From a virus (Duplodnaviria > Heunggongvirae > Uroviricota > Caudoviricetes): 64,000 nt of DNA. The DNA lies in the IMG/VR virus record IMGVR_UViG_3300037454_000941, positions 74,063 to 138,062 of that record; one strand, given 5' to 3'. Below the pieces are notes generated by a model that saw only the letters and a list, made by a program, of their open reading frames with translations, had not been told where the DNA came from and made no database searches. How positions within the stretch are numbered: the stretch's first letter is position 1; each line of letters opens with the position of its first letter. Position numbers and translations under genes: made by a program. Positions 18,056 to 53,719 of the stretch are shown in pieces.

Positions 18056-19768
18056 ATGCTTTTCAAGAAGAACAGGACTCCCGATAACCTAGCAGCCAGG
18101 CTGCTCAATTATGAACGCGAGTACGGCATGGGGAATCCCAAGGGCCAGTATTTTGACCGGGTGTTCAACCGCATAGACACCGAAAGGAAGGTCGAGGCGT
18201 CTAAACACGCGGTCGCGCAGGGAATCAACGACATGCTGTTTCCGAACGGCGCTTCGCCGGACGGGTACAGCACGTACATGCCGATGCCCGGCATTTCCGC
18301 CGAGACCGCGGACCCGGACAAGCTCCACGACGCGATTGCGCAGAAGGAATGTGACCGGTTCTGGCGAAAGAACGTGGAACGGGCGCTCAAGTACGAGACC
18401 GTGGCCGGTCGCTCGGAAGTCAATGAATCGTTAATCCAAATCTGTAACGAGGGCGCATACAAGGATGACAGGGGTGAATCGTGTTCACTCGAAATTGATC
18501 CTGATGCCAAGATAGGCGATGCGACCAAAGATATCCTTCATACCACGTTCCGTCGGAAGGTCCTTAGGGAGTTGCTGAATTTCCGGATAAACGGGTGGCA
18601 GTACATGCGCTACCTCTGCATCCACGGTCGTATATTCTTTGAAGTCGTGTTCGACGAGGAGCGCGGCAATATCCTTGGTGTGAGGATGCTGCGCGAGGAA
18701 AACATGATCATAGTGTATCACGACGACCTCATAGTGGGATTCCGGCAGATGCTTCCGGGCCCGATGGGCGTCAGTACGGGCGGCAAGAACTACAAGGACT
18801 TCTCCCCGAACCAGATACTCTATGCATCCCTCGAATCTACCGGCCCGGGCGGCATCAATGACCCGCGTTCCATTCTGGAGCCGGCAATGAAGCCGTATAA
18901 TCAGCTCAATACCATCGAAGACTCGGTGGTTATGTATCGTATCCTCTGGGGACAGGAAAAGCTCCTCATGAAGGTGGATACCGGTAACATGCCGAAGGAT
19001 AAGGCCGAAAAGTACATGAAGGACCAGGCTAAGGTATTCTCCCGCAAGTTGGATTACAACTCGCAAACGGGTGAAGTTACCAACTTCGGCAAGGCAATCG
19101 GCCTCACGGAACATTACATTGTCAGCCTGTCACAGGGTCGTACCGGCTCCACTATTGAAAGGATGCAGGGCGGAAACAACCTGCAGAATATCGATGACTT
19201 GAAATTCTTCAAGCGCAACCTGGTCAATGCGCTCATGGTTCCGCCGGGACGTATCACCGCGCTCGCCGGCGATAACCAGAACTACACCCAGGGTAAGATT
19301 GGTGAGGTCACTCAGTCCGAAGTGTCATTTGCTGCACTGGTCCAGAGGTATCAGACCCCACTCGAAGCCATTATGGTCCGCCTGTTTGTCATGGTTCTCA
19401 ACACCATGAAGAATGTGGATGATTCCATAAAGACCGAGGTCAACTTCTCCGTCAGGTTCAAGCGTTCGAATGGGTTCCAAAACTTCATTGAGAGCGAAAT
19501 CTGGAATACCAGGCTCGCGACGTTCGACCTCATGGCCAAGCATTGCCGTTCGAAGGAAAACCCGATGGGCATGCTGCCGCGCAAGTTTGCCTTGTTGAAG
19601 GGGCTCAGGATATCCGATGAGGACTACAATGAAATACGCAAGTGGCTCAAGGAAGAGAAGAATGACGAGCTGTATGGTGAGGTCAGTGCCGGCGCAGGGG
19701 GTGCTGGCGGTGGCTCGGGCGGAGGATCGGGAGGTGGCGACTCCGGTGGCCTCGGCGGCCTAATGTAA
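18056..19768 (+). CDS. gp20: Portal protein (T4 gp20-like)
   Basis: SILEPAMKPYNQLNTIEDSVVMYRI...VDTGNMPKDKAEKYM...DYNSQTGEV matches the gp20 signature; Gly-rich C-terminal tail. Confidence 0.93.
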   Translation: MLFKKNRTPDNLAARLLNYEREYGMGNPKGQYFDRVFNRIDTERKVEASKHAVAQGINDMLFPNGASPDGYSTYMPMPGISAETADPDKLHDAIAQKECDRFWRKNVERALKYETVAGRSEVNESLIQICNEGAYKDDRGESCSLEIDPDAKIGDATKDILHTTFRRKVLRELLNFRINGWQYMRYLCIHGRIFFEVVFDEERGNILGVRMLREENMIIVYHDDLIVGFRQMLPGPMGVSTGGKNYKDFSPNQILYASLESTGPGGINDPRSILEPAMKPYNQLNTIEDSVVMYRILWGQEKLLMKVDTGNMPKDKAEKYMKDQAKVFSRKLDYNSQTGEVTNFGKAIGLTEHYIVSLSQGRTGSTIERMQGGNNLQNIDDLKFFKRNLVNALMVPPGRITALAGDNQNYTQGKIGEVTQSEVSFAALVQRYQTPLEAIMVRLFVMVLNTMKNVDDSIKTEVNFSVRFKRSNGFQNFIESEIWNTRLATFDLMAKHCRSKENPMGMLPRKFALLKGLRISDEDYNEIRKWLKEEKNDELYGEVSAGAGGAGGGSGGGSGGGDSGGLGGLM

Positions 19769-19780
19769 CCGAAATATCGT

Positions 19781-19809
19781 AAAAAATCCCGGATTTCCCG
19801 GGATTTTTT
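19781..19809 (+). terminator. Terminator hairpin between portal and MCP
   Basis: AAAAAATCCCGG-ATTTC-CCGGGATTTTTT. Confidence 0.7.
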
Positions 19810-19960
19810 CTGTTTTTTCAAGTTCAGTGCACATTTTTGCATGGTTTTTGGGGCGGGATGTTGAAACATCTAAGCATTATGTCAGAAATCGTTCGGTAGT
19901 GCTTCCGGTCCGGGGCACACTTGCCCGGACGGATCAAACACTGAACAAAAGGTAACAAAA

Positions 19961-21445
19961 ATGCAGGTTATCCAGAACAAGTCCAATACACGTAAGTGGA
20001 AGGCCGTGCTCGAATCCAATTTGGGTCGTCCGCTCCGCAACCGTGGGGAAGCGTCTGCGATTGCAGTGCTTCTTGAAAACCAGAACTTGGTCAACCGTGG
20101 TGCCAAGTTCGAGTCGGCCAACATCACTGCCGATGTGGCCCAGTATCAACAGTATGCCTTGCCGCTCATCCGCCGTCAGTTCCCTGAACTCCTGGCAATG
20201 AACACCGTGGCCGTCATCCCGACAACTACGCCGCAGGGTATCTATTTCGCGCTCCGTTACCTCTACGATAACGAGCCGTTGAAGAGCACGCCGTTCCGTT
20301 ATGGCCAGAAGCAGGAAATCGGTTACGATTTGATTGCTGACCACACCGGTTTCGCAACAACCTTCAACCCGTACAGCACGGGCGCAGGTGAAATGCTCTC
20401 CAATTACTCCGAAGGTACGCAGGAACGCACCGGTAAGGCTTACCCGTTCGACCAGAACTATGGCCAGCTTTACAACAACTTCGGTGGTCTCACCAACGAT
20501 GGTGACGACAGTCTCGGTGGCTACGCCTACAACATCAAGAAGGCCAGTATCAAGGTGATCTCCGGCGCCATCCGCGTTGGTACCCGTGCTATCAAGAGCC
20601 ATTACACGCTGGAACTCCAGCAGGATATGGCTGCTGCACACGGCCAGGACGTTGAGGCCTTGCTCCTCGAAGGTCTCCAGTTCGAAATCCAGCAGAACAT
20701 CGACCGTGAAATCCTCATGGCCATGATCATGGTGGCTCAGAACGAACGCCTCGGTGGTGAAAAGGTTATCACCGTTGACCTTGCCAACACGACTTCCGGT
20801 CCTGCAAAGGGTCGCTGGTCCGCTGAAAGCATTGCTTCCGGCATCGTGAACACGATCATCGCGGTGAGCCGCAAGATTGCCCTCACGACCCGTATGGGCT
20901 CCGGTAACTTCGCTATCGTCTCTCCGGACGTTGGCGCCGCTATCGCCACTCTCAACAACGGTATCTACATCCCGAACGGCTACCTTGGCACTGACGCCAC
21001 GATGCAGCCTGCTGGTGGTGTGGCTGACGCCGGTTCTCTCCTCAACGGTCAGATCAAGCTGTACCAGGATATCTATGCCAACGCTTCCTATGCCCTCGTG
21101 GGCTTCAAGGGACCGCGCCAGGGCGAAAGCGGCATCATCTTCATGCCGTACATCCCGTACATCTTCACGAAGACCGCTGGTCAGGAAGATGGTAGCCCGC
21201 GTCTGATTGTCAAGAGCCGCTACGCTATCGTGGCTAACCTCTTGGGCGCCGGTCAGTTCTACCGCATCATCCAGTTCAAGAACGTGAACAACGTGATTGC
21301 CGGTATCGATCTGAACGAGGCTCCGTGGGAATCCAATGGTTCCTTCACGGGCGACAACCTCGAACCGGGTCTGACCTATCATGACACCTCCAGCGAGCTC
21401 TACAACGCTGCCGGTGGCTTGACTTTCGAAGACAAGAAGTGGTAA
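19961..21445 (+). CDS. gp23: Major capsid protein (T4 gp23-like)
   Basis: KWKAVLES, LLENQ, LPLIRRQFP, RAIKSHYTLELQQDM, EIQQNIDREI, FMPYIP, KSRY; strongly biased high-expression codon usage. Confidence 0.95.
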   Translation: MQVIQNKSNTRKWKAVLESNLGRPLRNRGEASAIAVLLENQNLVNRGAKFESANITADVAQYQQYALPLIRRQFPELLAMNTVAVIPTTTPQGIYFALRYLYDNEPLKSTPFRYGQKQEIGYDLIADHTGFATTFNPYSTGAGEMLSNYSEGTQERTGKAYPFDQNYGQLYNNFGGLTNDGDDSLGGYAYNIKKASIKVISGAIRVGTRAIKSHYTLELQQDMAAAHGQDVEALLLEGLQFEIQQNIDREILMAMIMVAQNERLGGEKVITVDLANTTSGPAKGRWSAESIASGIVNTIIAVSRKIALTTRMGSGNFAIVSPDVGAAIATLNNGIYIPNGYLGTDATMQPAGGVADAGSLLNGQIKLYQDIYANASYALVGFKGPRQGESGIIFMPYIPYIFTKTAGQEDGSPRLIVKSRYAIVANLLGAGQFYRIIQFKNVNNVIAGIDLNEAPWESNGSFTGDNLEPGLTYHDTSSELYNAAGGLTFEDKKW

Positions 21446-24557: not shown

Positions 24558-25355
24558 TTGCCTGTAATGACGAGTGATTCGGGGGTGGCTGAGCTCATCA
24601 CCGAAATATCTAGGTACAAGATCATTGGACACAAGGCGGAGACTGCCTGTTTCAAGCTGTACCACACCCATCCCGACCCGAAAATACGGGAGGGCGCAAA
24701 GCTGAAAATCATCGAGTCGAACCTGAGGTTCGTGTTTCAGTTTGCGATGGACTACCATAATTTGACGGGGCTCCCGACTACGGACTTCTATGCGGAGGGG
24801 AAGCTGGGTCTGCTGGAAGCCTTTTACAAGTATGACTACCGAACGGGCGTAAAGTTCGATTCGTTCGCCATCTGGGAGGTGCGGCGCCACATGGCGATGA
24901 TTGTCCAGGGAAGAGACCTGGTCCACGTGCCGGTGAGACAGCGCAAGCGTGTACTGAAAGCGCTCCGCGAAGGTAAGCCACTGGACATGAAGTACGGCGA
25001 GGAAGCTGCTAACGCCATTGCCGGCCCGGATTCACTTGACATGCCGGTGGGGGAGGATGGCGAGACTTCGACGTTCATGCTCCATGATATCATACCAGAC
25101 AATGATGCCGAGTCTGGTCCGGACTCGGGCACCATGATGGAGGACTTGCGCGCCTGTCTGGAAGACGAGATGAACCGTGTCCTAGATCCGGTGGAGACAA
25201 AGTTGTTGCGCTCTCTTTACGGCATTGACGGAGAAGGGAGTAGTTTTGAACGTGAGGCGGTGGAGACTGGGCTATCAAAGGACTATATTCGCAAGCTGAA
25301 AAACCAGGCATTGGAAAAGCTACGTGATAGTAAGCGGCTCAACTCACTGCGATAA
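24558..25355 (+). CDS. Sigma70-family RNA polymerase sigma factor (regions 2-4)
   Basis: IIESNLRFVFQFAMDY, EGKLGLLEAFYKYD...KFDSFAIWEVR (region 2), SLDMPVGEDG (region 3), C-terminal HTH IRKLKNQALEKLR (region 4); TTG start with SD GAGGGG. Confidence 0.9.
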   Translation: MPVMTSDSGVAELITEISRYKIIGHKAETACFKLYHTHPDPKIREGAKLKIIESNLRFVFQFAMDYHNLTGLPTTDFYAEGKLGLLEAFYKYDYRTGVKFDSFAIWEVRRHMAMIVQGRDLVHVPVRQRKRVLKALREGKPLDMKYGEEAANAIAGPDSLDMPVGEDGETSTFMLHDIIPDNDAESGPDSGTMMEDLRACLEDEMNRVLDPVETKLLRSLYGIDGEGSSFEREAVETGLSKDYIRKLKNQALEKLRDSKRLNSLR

Positions 25356-25375: not shown

Positions 25376-26341
25376 GTGGGATTCTTCTCGAAGATACGTA
25401 ACTTTTTCAAATCGGCACCCGCGGACCGGGATGCTGGGGAGCACGACGATATGAGTATGCCGCAGAATTATTTAGATGATGGCCCTACATTGATTTACAG
25501 CGACGAACCGAACATGTCGGACATGGTGACCGACCAGACCGGGAGGGTGAGGTACAACGCATCGTCGGTGGCCAGGGCATCGAACGCCATGATAGCCAAT
25601 ATTAACCAGACGCACCTTGTTCCGGGACAGGTAGTCCAGCGTCCGAGGCAGAGGCCGGTTCAGCGCCCGGTACAACAGCCGGTGCAGCAACCGGTACAGC
25701 AGCCGGCGCAGCAGCCTGCCCCCGTAGCTCCGGAACAGGAAACCGTGGTTATCCAGCCGCCCCCGCCCCCACAGCCGCAGCAGGTGTACCAGCAGCCAGT
25801 ATATCAGCAGCCGGTCTACCAGCAGCCAGGGTACCAGCAACCATATGGATATCAGCAACAGCCGCCGGCCTATGGGTTCCGGCAGCCCCCACAACAGCCG
25901 CAGCCGGGCGATGACATCAAGTTGGTCGAGGGGGAACAGGTGGCGCTTGCGCCGAACTTCCCCAACTACGAGATGATCCAGGTGAACGATACGTACCACC
26001 TGTACATTGACCTGCCGGGTGTCAAGAAAGAGGACCTTAGCATGAATTTCTCGGGGGGAAGCCTGTATGTCCGCGGACATAGGGATTTGATGTGCGAGCA
26101 ATTTCGACCGAAGGGTGGTAAAGGAAAAGGCAAGGGAAATAAAGGCAAGCGTCCGGTCTATCTGGCCCTGGTGGGCGTGGGGCGGCATTTGCTCGGTGAT
26201 TTCAGTTTCCCATTCTATTTCCCGAAGCCGGTGGACACATCGCCCAAGTCGTTTAAGGCGAACCTCACGGATGGAATACTCCATGTCGAGATGAAGATTG
26301 CCGGTGCCGACACGGGCATCTCGATTGGCATCGGAGGATAG
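25376..26341 (+). CDS. Small heat-shock protein (Hsp20/alpha-crystallin domain) with long Q/P/Y-rich N-terminal extension
   Basis: YHLYIDLPGVKKEDL...LYVRGHR...F.FP.PVD...KANLTDGILHVEM; PVQQ and VYQQP repeats upstream. Confidence 0.85.
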   Translation: MGFFSKIRNFFKSAPADRDAGEHDDMSMPQNYLDDGPTLIYSDEPNMSDMVTDQTGRVRYNASSVARASNAMIANINQTHLVPGQVVQRPRQRPVQRPVQQPVQQPVQQPAQQPAPVAPEQETVVIQPPPPPQPQQVYQQPVYQQPVYQQPGYQQPYGYQQQPPAYGFRQPPQQPQPGDDIKLVEGEQVALAPNFPNYEMIQVNDTYHLYIDLPGVKKEDLSMNFSGGSLYVRGHRDLMCEQFRPKGGKGKGKGNKGKRPVYLALVGVGRHLLGDFSFPFYFPKPVDTSPKSFKANLTDGILHVEMKIAGADTGISIGIGG

Positions 26342-26344
26342 CCC

Positions 26345-26677
26345 ATGGTGAAGTTCGATTTCGTGTTCACGGGTGACTTAATTCTTGTTGAGACCGTTGA
26401 CGATGCGGAATGTACGCCCGGTTCATCCAGACAGTATACCCGTTTCAATACCGAGTGTAAACCGAAGTTGATACGGTTGGCCCACGAATACGCAACCAAG
26501 TGTGCAACGAGTGGAGAACGGTTTGATAACACGGTGAAAGTCGGTCTTGTATTGCGGGACGCCCATTTTATCCTGCATGACATGGAACAGGTAATCGACG
26601 GAAAGGGAAATCCAACGAACCGGGTAAGATTCTTTCTTGATACACGTGAGGATGCAGATGAACGACCACCCATGTAA
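26345..26677 (+). CDS. Hypothetical protein
   Basis: 110-aa ORF starting 3 nt after the Hsp20 stop; SD GGAG. Confidence 0.65.
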   Translation: MVKFDFVFTGDLILVETVDDAECTPGSSRQYTRFNTECKPKLIRLAHEYATKCATSGERFDNTVKVGLVLRDAHFILHDMEQVIDGKGNPTNRVRFFLDTREDADERPPM

Positions 26678-27374
26678 CGGGATTCCCATCAGTGAAAGCG
26701 GGATCGCATATTGCAATATGCACCTGAAGCGGTTCGAGATCCAGCAGACAATTGATCGTGAAATCCTAGTGGCCATGATCCTGGCGGCGCAAACCGAATG
26801 TCTCGGTGGTGAAAAGGTTATCACCGTTGACCTTGCCAACGCGACTGCCGATACTGCAAAGGGTTGCTGGCTCGCTGAAAGCATCGCGAACACGATCATC
26901 GAGGCGAGCCTCAAGATTTCCCCCACGATTTGTATTAACTCCGATAACTTCGCTATCGTCTCCTCGGGCGTTGGCGCCGCTATCGCCACTCTCACCAATG
27001 GTATCTACATCCCGAACGGCCACCTTGACACTGACACCATGATGGGGCCAGATAGCGGTGTGGTTGGTGCCGGTTCTCTTCTTGGCGGTCACATCAAGCT
27101 ATACCAGGATCTCTACGCCAACGCTTCCTATGCCCTCGTGGGCTCCAAGGGGCCGCGTCAGGGTGAAATCTCGGATGCAGGTCGGTTCTACCGCATCATC
27201 CAGTTTAAGAACATGAACGACGTGATTGCCGGTATCGACCCGAACGGGACTCCGTGGGAATCCAATGATTCTTTCACGGATGACAACTCCGAACAGGGCC
27301 TGGCCTATCATGACGCTGTCAGTGGCTTGACTTTCGAAGACAAGAATTCTTTACTCGATGGAGACAAAGCATGA
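26658..27374 (+). CDS. Truncated, internally deleted paralogue of the MCP 3' half (open ORF or young pseudogene)
   Basis: 26733-27345 aligns by eye with MCP 20681-21438 at roughly 80% nucleotide identity, with three in-frame deletions and no stop codon. SD GAGG precedes ATG 26658; ATGA overlap with the next ORF. Confidence 0.85.
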   Translation: MNDHPCNGIPISESGIAYCNMHLKRFEIQQTIDREILVAMILAAQTECLGGEKVITVDLANATADTAKGCWLAESIANTIIEASLKISPTICINSDNFAIVSSGVGAAIATLTNGIYIPNGHLDTDTMMGPDSGVVGAGSLLGGHIKLYQDLYANASYALVGSKGPRQGEISDAGRFYRIIQFKNMNDVIAGIDPNGTPWESNDSFTDDNSEQGLAYHDAVSGLTFEDKNSLLDGDKA

Positions 27375-27550
27375 ATGGACCTATACTTAAACCGATGCTT
27401 CCGTCGATGACGTTTGACCAATACTGTGGCATGCGCTTGATGGAGATTGAATTCCAGCGTGTAATGGATGCGTTCGGTTTCGAAAATGAGACAGAGGATC
27501 TTTCCCCAAGGAATCTGAGACAATTTCCTGATTTTAGTCTACTGAATTAA
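27371..27550 (+). CDS. Small hypothetical protein (59 aa)
   Basis: MNGPILKPMLPSMTFDQYCG...FSLLN; ATGA overlap with the stop of the MCP-like ORF. Confidence 0.5.
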   Translation: MNGPILKPMLPSMTFDQYCGMRLMEIEFQRVMDAFGFENETEDLSPRNLRQFPDFSLLN

Positions 27551-27612
27551 AAGACCATGACCATACAAGGTGTTATTGTGGGTGGGCTAACTCAGTAGAA
27601 ATATAAGGGAAC

Positions 27613-27882
27613 TTATACTCGGTCGTACACAATAACTGTGTTTGGTAGATAAACATGCATTGTAGTGTAGAGATCTGATTTTGCATCATGATACTCATCA
27701 ATGTTAATTATCGTGTTGTCTTTCTTACAGGATTCTATATAAGTGTTTAGTGCCTCTGCGAAGTTGGCCAAATCTTGGGTAGATACGTGAACATCAACTC
27801 TAGTATGGTCTGGATATTCTGCGGATGCCGCTGGGTTATAATCGCCAGTATGAATGGCATTTGTGATGAGATCAATCCAGGG
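27613..27882 (-). other. Start-less 89-codon open frame continuing in frame after the TAA of the DCC-family gene
   Basis: PWIDLITNAIHTGDYNPAASAEYPDHTRVDVHV...VIVYDRV*; AT-rich, no upstream ATG/GTG. Confidence 0.4.
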
Positions 27883-28218
27883 TTAATGTTTCCCGCAGTT
27901 GCATCCGCCTCGTTTAACTACGCCGATTACTTTCCTCACGGGTTTCGCCGCTTTGTAGATTGCCTTCAACCCAGCCTTGCGGTATTTTTCTGGAAGAATC
28001 ATTAGGTAGTCGGTAATCTCGGGGAAGTCGGTCGCCATCCGGTCGACTGCATCGGTGCCGACATAGGAATTTCCCGCCGCATCGATGTACTTGAAGTCCT
28101 TGGCGCCGGATTCCGATGGGTAGTATTCTGCGCGATCCTTCACCTTTGCTTTGATCATGTGCTGGAAATTGGTGCAGATGGCACAGGTCGCGTCGTAGAT
28201 TATTCTCGGTAGGGCCAT
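27883..28218 (-). CDS. DCC1/DUF393-like thiol-disulfide oxidoreductase
   Basis: N-terminal IIYDATCAICTNF (DxxCxxC motif); C-terminal GGCNCGKH. Confidence 0.7.
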   Translation of the reverse strand: MALPRIIYDATCAICTNFQHMIKAKVKDRAEYYPSESGAKDFKYIDAAGNSYVGTDAVDRMATDFPEITDYLMILPEKYRKAGLKAIYKAAKPVRKVIGVVKRGGCNCGKH

Positions 28219-28219
28219 A

Positions 28220-29176
28220 TTAGTCACCTATCTTGACTTTGTATCCACCTTCTCTCGGGAGGGTCCCGAAGGAACCATCGGGATTGATTACGACGGTTTC
28301 GGTAGGTTGGTTAATCACGGTGCACTTTGGGTCCTTGCCGGCGCAGATGTCCTTGTATGGCATGCCCAATATTTCGTCAAGGTTGTCGGCGATCCGGTCC
28401 ATCATGTTGCACTTGGCATCTGACTGGGCGCACTTCATCGGACCATCATCGATCGTCGAGCCATCAAACGGGATTGACCGGTCGTTGAACGTGCTGATGC
28501 TCTGTACGTCATCTATCGATGCATCGAGCATCGGCTGTATCTCGGTCGCCCTGAACGTGAACGTTGGCCACTCGCCGTCGCATGAAGTGAGGAGCTCATT
28601 TGGATTGGATGTCGGTTTTGCCGCGGTGACCATCTGGCCATCGGCTTTCTTTACGACAAACAACGCCGGGATGTTCCCGCAGTGCACTACGTCACCGAGA
28701 TGGAATCCTTCCTGTTGCTGGCAACACTGCCCGGATGATTCAAGGAGGTACATTCGCATGAACTCCCTGCCCATGCCGCGTTCGATACATTCGTTGAGGG
28801 AGATGTCACCTAGACCGAGTCCCTCGCCCACCATGTCGCGTATTCCTTCCGCCGCCTGTTTTATGCCGTCGGTGACTTGTTCGGCGGTTTCAGTATCGTT
28901 CTCCGGTTCCTCAAAGAGGGGGCCGCGTTCGGCATCGGGTGCAGTCACGTTGCCCGAGCATTCGCCCGGCGCATTTTCGGTTGGCTGTTGTGCCTCCGGT
29001 TGACTAGCACCGCCGATCTTGGTGATGGTGGGCTTGGCACCGAACGGCGTAGCGCTGTCTCCGTAGTCGACGTAGATGGCATCTATGTCAGTCTCGGCTT
29101 CCAGGACTGGGCGGGCTATGGGGGCGGACTCTACGTTGCGAGTCAGTTCGAGGAGCTGGTCAAGATCGTCAATCAT
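28220..29176 (-). CDS. Acidic Cys-containing hypothetical protein (late)
   Basis: 318-aa ORF; SD AAGGGA; TATAAACT on the minus strand at 29207-29214. Confidence 0.7.
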   Translation of the reverse strand: MIDDLDQLLELTRNVESAPIARPVLEAETDIDAIYVDYGDSATPFGAKPTITKIGGASQPEAQQPTENAPGECSGNVTAPDAERGPLFEEPENDTETAEQVTDGIKQAAEGIRDMVGEGLGLGDISLNECIERGMGREFMRMYLLESSGQCCQQQEGFHLGDVVHCGNIPALFVVKKADGQMVTAAKPTSNPNELLTSCDGEWPTFTFRATEIQPMLDASIDDVQSISTFNDRSIPFDGSTIDDGPMKCAQSDAKCNMMDRIADNLDEILGMPYKDICAGKDPKCTVINQPTETVVINPDGSFGTLPREGGYKVKIGD

Positions 29177-29209: not shown

Positions 29210-31078
29210 TTATACTCGGTACTGGGTTTCCGGGAGACCATTCATGGTGGCCGGCGCCATTTGCGGTCCGTATCCAGATTGTGGGTATGCCGGATGCTGA
29301 TATGCCGGATGCTGTGGGTAACGCATGCCTTGTGGTGGAGGATACGGCATGCCGGGGCGTGGGGCGTAACCCTGGGGATAATTTTGCCCATTTGGTACCA
29401 TGGTTGTTCCGATAGCGGCAACCTGTACTCGTTGTGCTGGGGGGATCATGGTTTGCCTGCCGGCTAGTTCAGCGAGACCGCGCTGCTCGGCGACAATTTC
29501 CGGATTCCTCGCAAACTGCAATGCCCGATCCATGTCGGCCACTTCCGCATCGGGGGCAAACACCGCCCGGATCGTGTCCGCCATGGACAGCTCCTCCTCA
29601 GTTCCCTGGAAGGTAGGCGAAGCGGCATGGAACACGGCCCAGTATAGGCTCGTTACGTGGTCATCATGGTTTCCTCCGGATGCGCCCCAAGTGTTCTTGG
29701 TTGGGCGAGTGAAGGACATTAACTCCATAATGGTCTTCTCGTCATGGATCAGCAGATAATGCTTCTGGATGTACGTCTTGAGAAGCATGACGGCGGTCGT
29801 TTTTGTGGCCGACGTGGAATACATGCCACGGAAGTAGCTGTCGTAGTCAACCATGTTCGGGTACTGGAGCGTGGCCGTCATTGTCTGGTAGGCGCGTGCA
29901 CCGGAGCCGCCGTTATACTCAATCGTGAGCGCGGGGAAGTGATATTTGCGGAGAAGTACCATGGACACGGCACAGAAATCTTCGACAGTCACACAGTTTG
30001 ACGAGAGTACGAGCACCTGTTCCAGCTTGCAGCTGGTCTTGGCGTAAAGTATTTGCAATACGTGGTAGTCCTGCCGCATGCCGTATCCGGTATCGAGTGC
30101 GGCAATGTAAACGGCCCCGTCGTGTTCCATCTGCTGTTGATTGAGCGGGCGGTTGAAAATGCGCAACTGGTAGTCATCCTTGATGCGTGGCGTGGCCATC
30201 GGCTTGTCGGGATGGAGATGCTGAAGGGTCTTGTAGTCGATGAGCGTGACTGCGGAACCGACGAACTCGCACATGTATTCCTGGCGGAACCGTTCTTCGC
30301 CGATACGAGCCTTTTCGTCGATGCCCCACTGTTCATCCCTTCCCGGAACTTCGTGCCACAGAACGACCGACCTGACGTACTTTGACTGTAGGTCGTGCGC
30401 GCTCGCGGTGCTTTCCTCCACGGCGTCTTCCCACATGCGGTAAAAGTGGTTCATCCCGTTAGGAGTTGACGTGATGATGACGCGCGTCTTCTTACCGGAT
30501 GATATCGTCGGGAAAACGGATGCCATGAATTCATCCGCCATGCCGGGTCGGAGGAACGCGAATTCGTCCAGGTACAGTAGGTTCGGGGAGAATCCGCGAA
30601 TACCGTCGGAACTGGACGCCGCAATGATTATGCGGCACCCGTTAGCAAACTGTATGGACATTTTGTTCCAGAGCTTAACGCCTGGCTGCAACCAGTACGG
30701 GAGGTTTACGTAGGATTCGCGCAGGAGCTGGAGTTGTTCCTTGGCCAGCATGAGCTTGTTGGCGAGCATCGCTATGAGCTGGTCCTCGTGGAACATCGCC
30801 CACCACAGGATGAACGCCCTGACGATGGTGGATTTACCCACCTGGCGACTCCACTTGTTGATATTGAACCTGTATTTCAGGAACCTACGTATGGCCCGAT
30901 CCTGGAACGGGTACGTCTCCATCAGTTTCGTGCCCTCGTCCTTGGTGTTGATATAGACGTAGTGCCTGATGAAGTATATTGGGTCCTTTGAACAGCGCTC
31001 GATTTCCATCAGTTTGTATGCATCTAACTTGACGGATTCGTTTGCTGCCCTCAGGTTATGTATCCCGTTGAATGGCAT
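29210..31078 (-). CDS. gp17: Terminase large subunit (T4 gp17-like) with Q/P/Y-rich C-terminal tail
   Basis: Walker A SRQVGKST, Walker B LYLDEFAF, STPNG, RFRQEYMCEF, nuclease DTGYG...QDY and NHDDHV. ATG 31078 lies 8 nt after TATAAAC. Confidence 0.95.
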   Translation of the reverse strand: MPFNGIHNLRAANESVKLDAYKLMEIERCSKDPIYFIRHYVYINTKDEGTKLMETYPFQDRAIRRFLKYRFNINKWSRQVGKSTIVRAFILWWAMFHEDQLIAMLANKLMLAKEQLQLLRESYVNLPYWLQPGVKLWNKMSIQFANGCRIIIAASSSDGIRGFSPNLLYLDEFAFLRPGMADEFMASVFPTISSGKKTRVIITSTPNGMNHFYRMWEDAVEESTASAHDLQSKYVRSVVLWHEVPGRDEQWGIDEKARIGEERFRQEYMCEFVGSAVTLIDYKTLQHLHPDKPMATPRIKDDYQLRIFNRPLNQQQMEHDGAVYIAALDTGYGMRQDYHVLQILYAKTSCKLEQVLVLSSNCVTVEDFCAVSMVLLRKYHFPALTIEYNGGSGARAYQTMTATLQYPNMVDYDSYFRGMYSTSATKTTAVMLLKTYIQKHYLLIHDEKTIMELMSFTRPTKNTWGASGGNHDDHVTSLYWAVFHAASPTFQGTEEELSMADTIRAVFAPDAEVADMDRALQFARNPEIVAEQRGLAELAGRQTMIPPAQRVQVAAIGTTMVPNGQNYPQGYAPRPGMPYPPPQGMRYPQHPAYQHPAYPQSGYGPQMAPATMNGLPETQYRV

Positions 31079-31086
31079 AAATAACA

Positions 31087-31096
31087 GTTTATAAAC
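31087..31096. promoter_or_regulatory. Palindromic late-promoter-like site GTTTATAAAC
   Basis: Contains TATAAAC on both strands between the divergent terminase and glycosyltransferase genes. Confidence 0.6.
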
Positions 31097-31160
31097 AGCG
31101 GGTTCACTGATTTTTTGAATAGTATGCAAAAATGGCCTTGAATTTTATTATATTTCATGT

Positions 31161-53051: not shown

Positions 53052-53289
53052 AATATGGCACACCCTGCTGGGTGACATTTCCAAGTTGGAGGCCGAATGG
53101 AAACTGTGCCGGCGTATGTATGATGATGCCACTGCAGTAATCAACGCCGAGAAGATTGGGCCGGAGGTGCGCTTGCTTCTCCGTAACGTCAGCGATTATT
53201 GGAATCGCAGGCGTCTGGCGTTGGAACGGACGATGGAACGTGTCGGTATGAACGAATATCTTGTAAAGTGGAGGGGCAGTGGCCACTAA
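52996..53289 (+). CDS. Helical hypothetical protein
   Basis: Overlapping ORF within a tightly packed operon. Confidence 0.55.
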   Translation: MEQQKLEAIKKSFSEPQSKIWHTLLGDISKLEAEWKLCRRMYDDATAVINAEKIGPEVRLLLRNVSDYWNRRRLALERTMERVGMNEYLVKWRGSGH

Positions 53290-53719
53290 GAAGGAACTTG
53301 CTCGGTTTACTGCCGAGATTATGGATTCATCGGTGCGTACCATCGGTGGTATACAGTTTACCGAGGCAGCCGTACTTTCGGTGTTTTCTCAGATTATGGC
53401 CAATGGGTGTACCGTAGAGGATATTGCCCCCCTTGAACGGGAAAAGAAGGGAGTGAGGCCGGATGAACCATGGAAGGGTCGCGCGATGGCCAGATCGGTT
53501 AATGCCAGTATCGAAGGGACCGTATTGAAAGTGGAATTCGCGGTGCCGGATACTCGTTATGGGAAGATCTTGATGGCGACCGCCGAGACAGCCGGTGGAT
53601 TCGACCGGATCAGGTTCATGCCCGTTGCGCAGGGGGTGCCGGACGCGGATGGCAAGGTTGATCGAGTAAAGCTGGCATATGTTACGTTCACCACGGCGCT
53701 TGCAGGAAAACCGAAATAG
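53279..53719 (+). CDS. Degenerate prohead-protease (T4 gp21/HK97 fold)-like protein
   Basis: EGTVLKVEFAVPDTRYGKILM...IRFMPVAQG...DGKV...L.YVTF parallels gp21 'EG..V.G...ILDTP.GKI...GVSSRG.G...G.V....L...D.V'; catalytic His/Ser motifs absent. Confidence 0.4.
   Translation: MATKKELARFTAEIMDSSVRTIGGIQFTEAAVLSVFSQIMANGCTVEDIAPLEREKKGVRPDEPWKGRAMARSVNASIEGTVLKVEFAVPDTRYGKILMATAETAGGFDRIRFMPVAQGVPDADGKVDRVKLAYVTFTTALAGKPK

Follow-up and report, generated by a model that had tools for sequence, protein, structure and literature searches.

A young partial copy of the major capsid gene, open in frame and apparently free of selection on its protein, at a cassette junction in a large T4-like rumen phage

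Introduction

Partial gene duplicates and pseudogene relics occur in the accessory regions of T4-like and other large phages. Here an open reading frame (ORF) of 238 codons is described (26658..27374, + strand), referred to below as the copy, which derives from the 3′ part of a gp23-type major capsid protein (MCP) gene and probably forms the tail of an accessory operon. The stretch of DNA that was analysed, referred to as the window (64,000 nucleotides), corresponds to bases 74063-138062 of the linear 223,861-bp IMG/VR viral contig IMGVR_UViG_3300037454_000941; its source is a large T4-like rumen phage, and CheckV estimates the completeness of the whole record at 59%. The amino-acid sequence of the copy appears to evolve without selection, and we consider the copy to be probably an “open pseudogene”, that is, a young, translated-through relic that resides in a cassette hot spot.

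Organization of the locus

The parent MCP gene (19961..21445, + strand) encodes 494 amino acids that match PF07068 (E 2.3e-64) and phrog_138 (E 8e-67), and also the T4 gp23 structures 5vf3/6uzc (E 1e-25). Based on blastn against the whole record, the segment that was duplicated comprises MCP codons 240-492 (20680..21438, + strand) and stops 7 nt short of the final base of the MCP stop codon. The duplicated capsid DNA lies at 26732..27346 (+ strand) and aligns in two blocks, 26732-27168 with 20680-21128 (83.1% identity) and 27169-27346 with 21240-21438 (77.9%). Over 615 codon-aligned bases the copy and the MCP gene differ at 91 positions (85.2% identity). The product aligns by BLASTP with MCP residues 240-389 and 429-492 (E 2e-90) and passes the Pfam gathering score for PF07068 (38.8 bits versus 24.4), with only profile positions 181-319 of 376 being covered; its orthologues in contigs of the European Nucleotide Archive (ENA) are P0010 and P0012.

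Three pieces of the parent sequence are absent from the copy, and the corresponding junctions are located after positions 26880, 27168 and 27312. The first deletion removed 12 nt (4 codons; MCP 20829-20840) between GCAT repeats, the second 111 nt (37 codons; MCP 21129-21239) and the third 21 nt (7 codons; MCP 21384-21404). The 37 codons lost in the second deletion (SGIIFMPYIPY...KSRYAIVAN) belong to the conserved core of the protein, nearly every column being invariant among 30 related MCPs.

The reading frame is open from 26637 to 27374. A Shine-Dalgarno (SD)-like GAGGA (26648..26652, + strand) precedes the ATG at 26658 by 5 nt; alternative upstream starts are present at 26637 (TTG) and 26652 (ATG). 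The first 25 codons form a leader (26658..26731, + strand) with homology to neither the MCP nor the rest of the record, and when the flanks of the MCP gene were compared with those of the copy, that is the 5′ leader and the 3′ tail, Smith-Waterman scores were no better than those of shuffled sequences. A perfect 16-nt palindrome, GCATATTGCAATATGC, is located inside the leader at 26706-26721, 10 nt ahead of the 5′ junction of the duplication; it is detected as a self inverted blastn match, is invariant in six assemblies and is unique in the 224-kb record.

The operon is on the + strand and begins about 3 kb beyond the MCP gene. It consists of genes for a sigma factor (24558-25355, +; PF04542; PHROG 351, E 5e-32), an Hsp20-like protein (25376-26341, +; weak Hsp20 match) and a hypothetical protein of 110 amino acids (26345..26677, +), the last conserved gene of the operon, which overlaps the copy by 20 nt. 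At its other end the copy shares an ATGA (27371-27374), which includes its stop codon, with an orphan ORF of 59 codons, ORF59 (27371..27550, +), that has its own GGAGA at 27360-27364. ORF59 yielded no lead in Pfam, PHROG or Atlas, and its relatives are confined to the same lineage. An AT-rich spacer of 329 bp (27553..27881) follows at the convergent junction, beyond which lie minus-strand genes that include the large terminase gene (29210-31129). Rfam and tRNA scans of 26000-28400 gave no match, and a promoter/terminator scan found terminator-like sites to be no commoner than in shuffled sequence, with none between the 110-amino-acid gene and the copy.

The first-pass annotation of this DNA had reported much of this arrangement from the letters of the window, and with respect to the arrangement it was accurate: a diverged MCP copy at 26733-27345, three deletions in multiples of three with the first between GCAT repeats, an open frame with an SD and an ATGA overlap, a 37-codon deletion that strikes the conserved capsid core, and sigma, Hsp20 and hypothetical genes upstream.

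Occurrence in other assemblies

The same ORF is present in four ENA contigs, L089 (35 kb), L090, L091 and L092, which were reached through the 90%-identity cluster of the copy product and whose contigs are named, in their records, in at least two different styles; one record name refers to a bovine metagenome (PRJEB23561). In all four the three deletions are identical, the 110-amino-acid gene is upstream and the 59-codon ORF is downstream; over 10.9 kb the window and L089 share 97.7% identity. A fifth ENA contig of 511 bp, L093, represents a partial third haplotype that is mosaic. Positions 448-511 of L093 are Illumina adapter, and only its first ~447 bases are phage DNA. Across the six assemblies the SD and the start codon are identical and the leader shows a single difference, at 26669; all five full-length assemblies keep an open frame. 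The MCP gene of L089 (L089:3303-4783) appears split due to 31 dispersed N bases (window-equivalent 20540-20823), and there is no real frameshift.

The first-pass annotation had also drawn attention to many radical substitutions in the copy. Several of them (R>C, F>S, G>D) are confined to the window’s strain; L089 lacks them in its orthologous copy.

Searches for further examples were negative. Exact-pattern scans of JGI metagenome contigs and IMG/VR for the 5′ junction and the junction of the second deletion recovered no further haplotypes, a look-up of the upstream 110-amino-acid protein returned the same four ENA contigs only, blastn and tblastn comparisons with 50,697 GenBank phage records gave no match, and an IMG/VR related-locus search with the copy as query found no relative. 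A family of truncated copies was considered and rejected, as the protein matches of near length outside the copy’s own cluster (P0004-P0009) are fragments of the true MCPs of relatives.

Origin of the copy and the cassette hot spot

A maximum-likelihood tree was built from the homologous codons of 19 sequences, namely 17 related MCPs, the MCP of the window and the copy. The copy is the sister of the window’s own MCP with a bootstrap value of 100; the terminal branch of the MCP is about 0 and that of the copy 0.19. At 79 of the 91 differing sites the outgroups share the state of the MCP, and the changes at these sites are thus derived in the copy.

No further MCP-like sequence lies less than 10 kb from the capsid gene in any of 80 related IMG/VR loci. 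Searches of the whole records of five relatives, two of them 81% and 91% complete and three 24-67% complete, found no copy. The closest relative that spans the site, L009, has an MCP that is 93% identical and carries neither the copy nor ORF59 at the syntenic position. The + strand genes of L009 end at this site with the homologue of the 110-amino-acid gene (18803-19102; 49% identity over residues 1-102), and the sigma, Hsp20-like and hypothetical genes are followed by two unrelated minus-strand genes. These two minus-strand genes are paralogous to each other and both start with MNTNQKKYTAFMESVCKEFN. The copy is known only from the window and the near-identical strains L089-L093. Taken together, the copy appears to be a young, lineage-specific partial duplicate of the phage’s own capsid gene.

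The site itself varies even between close strains. In L089-L092 the 329-bp spacer at 27553-27881 is exchanged for 748 bp that hold a minus-strand gene for 220 amino acids (L089:10896-11643); the flanks of the exchange are 97-98% identical and the interior is without homology. The convergent junction after the operon is a cassette-exchange hot spot.

Selection on the protein sequence

Selection was assessed by counting and by simulation. The differences between the copy and the MCP gene are distributed over the three codon positions as 26, 33 and 32, and the ratio of non-synonymous to synonymous substitution rates (dN/dS, or omega) by the Nei-Gojobori method is 0.60, a value that is pushed down by transition bias. 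Random placement of 91 substitutions is expected to produce 57.5 +/- 3.8 amino-acid changes, and 56 are observed. When the changes are polarised with the MCP and the outgroups, non-synonymous and synonymous changes (N:S) number 47:15 on the stem of the copy, 12:3 on the window tip and 7:2 on the L089 tip, where a neutral ratio would be about 3.3, and dN/dS comes to about 0.7-1 on each branch of the copy. On the branch of the MCP the corresponding counts are 0 and 4.

The comparison of the window with L089 extends this to the neighbouring genes. Here the copy has a dN/dS of 0.75, whereas the value is 0 for the MCP (dN = 0), g21589 and g23259, 0.03 for the sigma factor, 0.055 for the portal, 0.06 for a patatin-like gene, 0.065 for the 110-amino-acid gene and 0.07 for the Hsp20-like gene; eight of the nine neighbours thus fall within 0-0.12, and the ninth, g22229, has 0.36. 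For the copy a binomial test is compatible with neutrality (p 0.53) and rejects an omega of 0.07 (p 1e-10). In a random-placement control the copy shows 22 amino-acid changes versus 21.7 expected, whereas the sigma (1 versus 7.9), Hsp20-like (3 versus 14.2) and portal (3 versus 13.6) genes depart decisively from random placement. The strong purifying selection of true MCPs is therefore lacking (omega 0.6-0.75 versus 0-0.08 for MCP).

No class of residue or segment appears to be spared. Changes affect 25 of 105 positions that are invariant among 18 MCPs and 31 of 100 that are variable (Fisher p 0.27). Along the copy there is neither clustering nor a protected patch, the longest unchanged run being 13 versus 13.8 expected (dispersion P 0.39). 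As far as the substitutions can tell, the protein sequence of the copy evolves without selection.

The mutations themselves are ordinary. The spectrum consists of 69 transitions and 22 transversions, with C>T the commonest change, and the fraction of sites changed is 15% for A, 18% for C, 12% for G and 14% for T. The dS of the copy between the window and L089 (0.057) is like that of its neighbours, most of which have 0.05-0.09 (range 0.014-0.18), which argues against hypermutation. One asymmetry is left unexplained: since the duplication the 3′ half of the MCP gene has gained 4-7 synonymous changes versus about 18 in the copy. Two possibilities are codon-usage selection on a highly expressed MCP gene and selection, soon after the duplication, for divergence between the halves of a recombinogenic direct repeat.

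Parts of the capsid fold that remain

Structural positions were mapped by a phmmer alignment in which MCP 199-426 corresponds to T4 gp23 254-482 (full-length numbering). In gp23, residues 292, 306 and 307 are in the spine helix and residues 457, 460 and 461 at the quasi-threefold contacts between capsomers (PMC9546572). The copy starts at about gp23 295, within the spine helix, and retains the A-domain region; missing from it are the short P-domain helix, the N-arm, and the insertion domain together with the linkers of that domain. In gp23 numbering the 37-codon deletion takes out residues 446-482, and with them the P-domain sheet that mediates capsomer contacts and includes A455, T457, R460 and G461 (via PMC9546572), so that what is left is not a complete HK97-type fold. 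An AlphaFold2 model of the MCP from a 30-sequence alignment was too poor for use, with a mean predicted local distance difference test (pLDDT) score of 46.7. Due to the loss of the N-terminal half and the P-domain sheet the product should be unable to serve as a shell subunit or as a gp24-type vertex protein, and as a capsid protein the copy is, by its predicted domain content, dead.

Capsid-derived small proteins in sister phages

A second type of capsid fragment, here named mini-gp23, is encoded in sister phages. It is a conserved ORF of 88-89 amino acids, found at L086:2559-2828 (+) in the record of L009 and at L085:3097-3363 (+) in that of L005, where its neighbours are a predicted methyltransferase-like ORF (named by eye from sequence) and a P-loop protein. 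The core of mini-gp23, IKIYSDFYADPNYVLVGYKGK..PGVFFIPYKKPNIF, aligns by hhalign with MCP residues 359-403 (probability 97%, E 6e-11). The family comprises at least 75 sequence clusters of 71-102 amino acids, most of 86-91, and a PF07068 match is precomputed in most. Its dN/dS is 0.35 versus 0.10-0.11 in its neighbours, which indicates purifying selection. No orthologue was seen in the record of the window, where the syntenic region is not assembled.

Like the copy, mini-gp23 is a small ORF that goes back to the C-terminal region of this capsid protein and that resides among non-structural genes. It differs in being older, widespread and conserved in length and core, and in covering a region (MCP 359-403) that is in part deleted from the copy.

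The intact frame

The explanation that we favour is as follows. The 3′ 759 nt of the gp23-type capsid gene would have been duplicated recently within this phage lineage, and the duplicate, the unrelated 25-codon leader and the orphan ORF59 would have arrived together at the variable convergent end of the sigma/Hsp20-like operon. After the duplication, amino-acid changes would accumulate as they do when there is no selection on the protein. The copy, which has gained a start and an SD of its own, probably continues to be transcribed and translated at the tail end of the operon, judging from its strand, its overlaps and its SD. The frame may have stayed open by luck, or through the polarity that frame-breaking mutations would exert on the 3′ end of the operon, and the sequence of the product would not be the reason for the open frame. 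The position of the copy as sister to the phage’s own MCP, together with an omega of about 1 and neutral N:S ratios on the stem and on both tips, is what a relic derived from a parent gene should display.

Several observations weigh against this explanation. The copy does not have the disrupted frame that characterizes a pseudogene. When 91 substitutions are placed at random, the copy is left free of stops in 13% of trials, and in about 10% if the L089 tip is added; all three deletions are multiples of three (naively 1/27); and there is no indel of 1-2 nt except for the loss of a single base 8 nt before the stop in L092. The SD and the start codon are unchanged throughout the six assemblies. 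The absence of stops and the in-frame deletions together give a naive P of ~0.004, which makes strict neutrality uncomfortable and renders some selection against frame-breaking mutations plausible even if the amino-acid sequence is free. Polarity is the simplest mechanism, as an early stop codon would mean that several hundred bases ahead of ORF59, at the operon’s end, go untranslated. This suggestion carries little weight: ORF59 has an SD of its own, is an orphan and differs between the window and L089 by three substitutions, too few for a judgement (2 synonymous, 1 non-synonymous), and nothing lies further downstream on that strand. In addition, the limits on omega between strains are ~0.35-1.8 (from 23N:9S), which leaves room for weak purifying selection, and the conservation of mini-gp23 implies that capsid fragments are sometimes domesticated in this clade.

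Partial duplicates and relics in the plastic regions of T4-like and other large phages resemble the copy in their origin from a gene of the same genome, their restriction to a lineage and their location at cassette junctions, and also in neutral substitution at the local mutation rate and the loss of essential parts of the parent fold. The copy differs from them in its open frame of 238 codons, in having three in-frame deletions and in its own start and SD.

Alternative explanations

The same open frame is what recommends a functional, capsid-derived accessory protein, which might deceive a capsid-sensing defence, or modulate or inhibit the assembly of capsomers. It would comprise the A-domain and most of the spine helix, and very relaxed or diversifying (arms-race) selection would bring its average dN/dS close to 1. 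CapRel(SJ46) and Lit/Gol are capsid-sensing defences, and they supply the rationale for a capsid decoy. In spite of three deletions and 91 substitutions the frame is intact, the six assemblies agree in SD, start codon and position within the operon, and sister phages maintain a conserved MCP-derived protein of 89 amino acids. The substitutions point the other way: there is no constrained class of residues, patch or segment, N:S is neutral on every branch, and the copy is limited to one species-level lineage. A decoy would be expected to preserve the sensed epitope, or a surface under selection, and neither was found. The T4 Gol peptide, which is sensed by Lit, is presumably in the N-terminal region of gp23, which the copy lacks. 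Full-text literature searches found no phage-encoded decoy made from an MCP fragment and nothing pertinent on truncated or duplicated MCP copies. We hold a functional protein of this kind to be unlikely. The decoy and the dominant-negative inhibitor of the first-pass annotation, and likewise its recombination donor, are without support, and a dN/dS near 1 and the absence of the copy in relatives largely refute them. That annotation had itself named such a ratio, along with frameshifted or absent copies in relatives, as grounds for abandoning a functional product: the ratio and the absence were found, and no frameshifted allele was.

A narrower version, which we rate as rather improbable, is that selection does keep the frame open and that the fragment, an A-domain and spine helix without the surfaces of capsomer contact, is a newborn accessory protein. 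It could act as a capsid-sensor decoy or as a modulator that caps capsomers, and would then represent the earliest stage of a path like that of mini-gp23. The near-neutral dN/dS would in that case reflect a mixture of release from capsid constraints and arms-race change.

It is highly improbable that the copy is a silent donor that supplies the capsid gene by gene conversion. The copy and the capsid gene, 5.3 kb apart, do form a direct repeat of 85% identity. The 3′ half of the MCP gene has, however, acquired 0 N and 4 S since the duplication, with dN = 0 between strains, and an MCP without non-synonymous change implies that variants from the copy have not passed into it. Conversion across the deletion junctions would remove invariant core strands, and a crossover between the repeats would delete ~6 kb, with the loss of the sigma gene and a portion of the MCP gene.

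A gp24-like vertex (pentamer) paralogue, which the first-pass annotation already thought improbable given its crippled fold, is refuted by domain content. T4 gp24 (PDB 1YUE; PMC9546572) is likewise a second gp23-family sequence in a T4-like genome, and the copy provides a second PF07068 match in a genome in which no gp24 paralogue is otherwise seen. Nevertheless gp24 is full length with the whole HK97-type fold, is conserved in relatives and is under purifying selection, whereas the copy is a neutrally evolving 3′ fragment that matches profile positions 181-319 only, is devoid of the N-terminal half and P-domain sheet, and is missing from relatives, including the 81-91% complete records with a single MCP.

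An assembly chimera or a target of hypermutation like that of diversity-generating retroelements (DGRs), either of which might be suspected in a metagenome-assembled contig that is 59% complete and has a copy branch far longer than the MCP branch, can be set aside, since contigs from four other ENA assemblies and the fragment of a third haplotype have the same arrangement, which also answers the first-pass annotation’s concern about misassembly, and since the spectrum is ordinary and the divergence between strains equals the dS of the neighbours. A DGR variable repeat was rejected on the same spectrum (no search for a reverse transcriptase was made), as mismatches without adenine specificity rule out a DGR-like origin.

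Other features of the capsid region

The portal gene (18056-19768; T4-type, PF07230) is followed directly by the MCP gene on its 3′ side, with neither a prohead protease gene nor a scaffold gene in between (window 18056-21445). The gp23 family is represented by a single full-length gene, with no gp24-like paralogue, in the record and in relatives that are up to 91% complete. A Pfam scan of the ORF at window 53279-53719 (+) matched no family at E <= 0.01. An open frame of 482 codons is present antisense to the MCP gene (window 19934-21382, minus strand); it is most likely a by-product of MCP codon usage and not a gene. Shorter antisense remnants persist in the region of the copy (26423-26998 and 26766-27092).

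In three relatives, L004 (ENA ERZ1024294 scaffold_739), L006 and L008, an insertion of 5-6 kb separates the MCP gene from the next conserved gene. Genes in the insertion of L004 match DUF7487 and MTES_1575 (Vsr-like endonuclease). L004 also has a minus-strand gene for 551 amino acids between the portal and MCP genes, and its MCP is called as two ORFs (196 + 276 amino acids) with an internal gap of 20 residues.

Conclusions

With a protein sequence that the tests indicate to be free of selection, the copy should not be listed among anti-defence or assembly systems, and it illustrates that an intact frame, an SD and an overlap with the next gene are insufficient to call function. The observation of mini-gp23, a capsid fragment conserved in sister phages, has more potential than the copy itself. 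As a probable open pseudogene, the copy would offer a dated example of how a large phage gains a gene fragment at a cassette hot spot and then erodes it.

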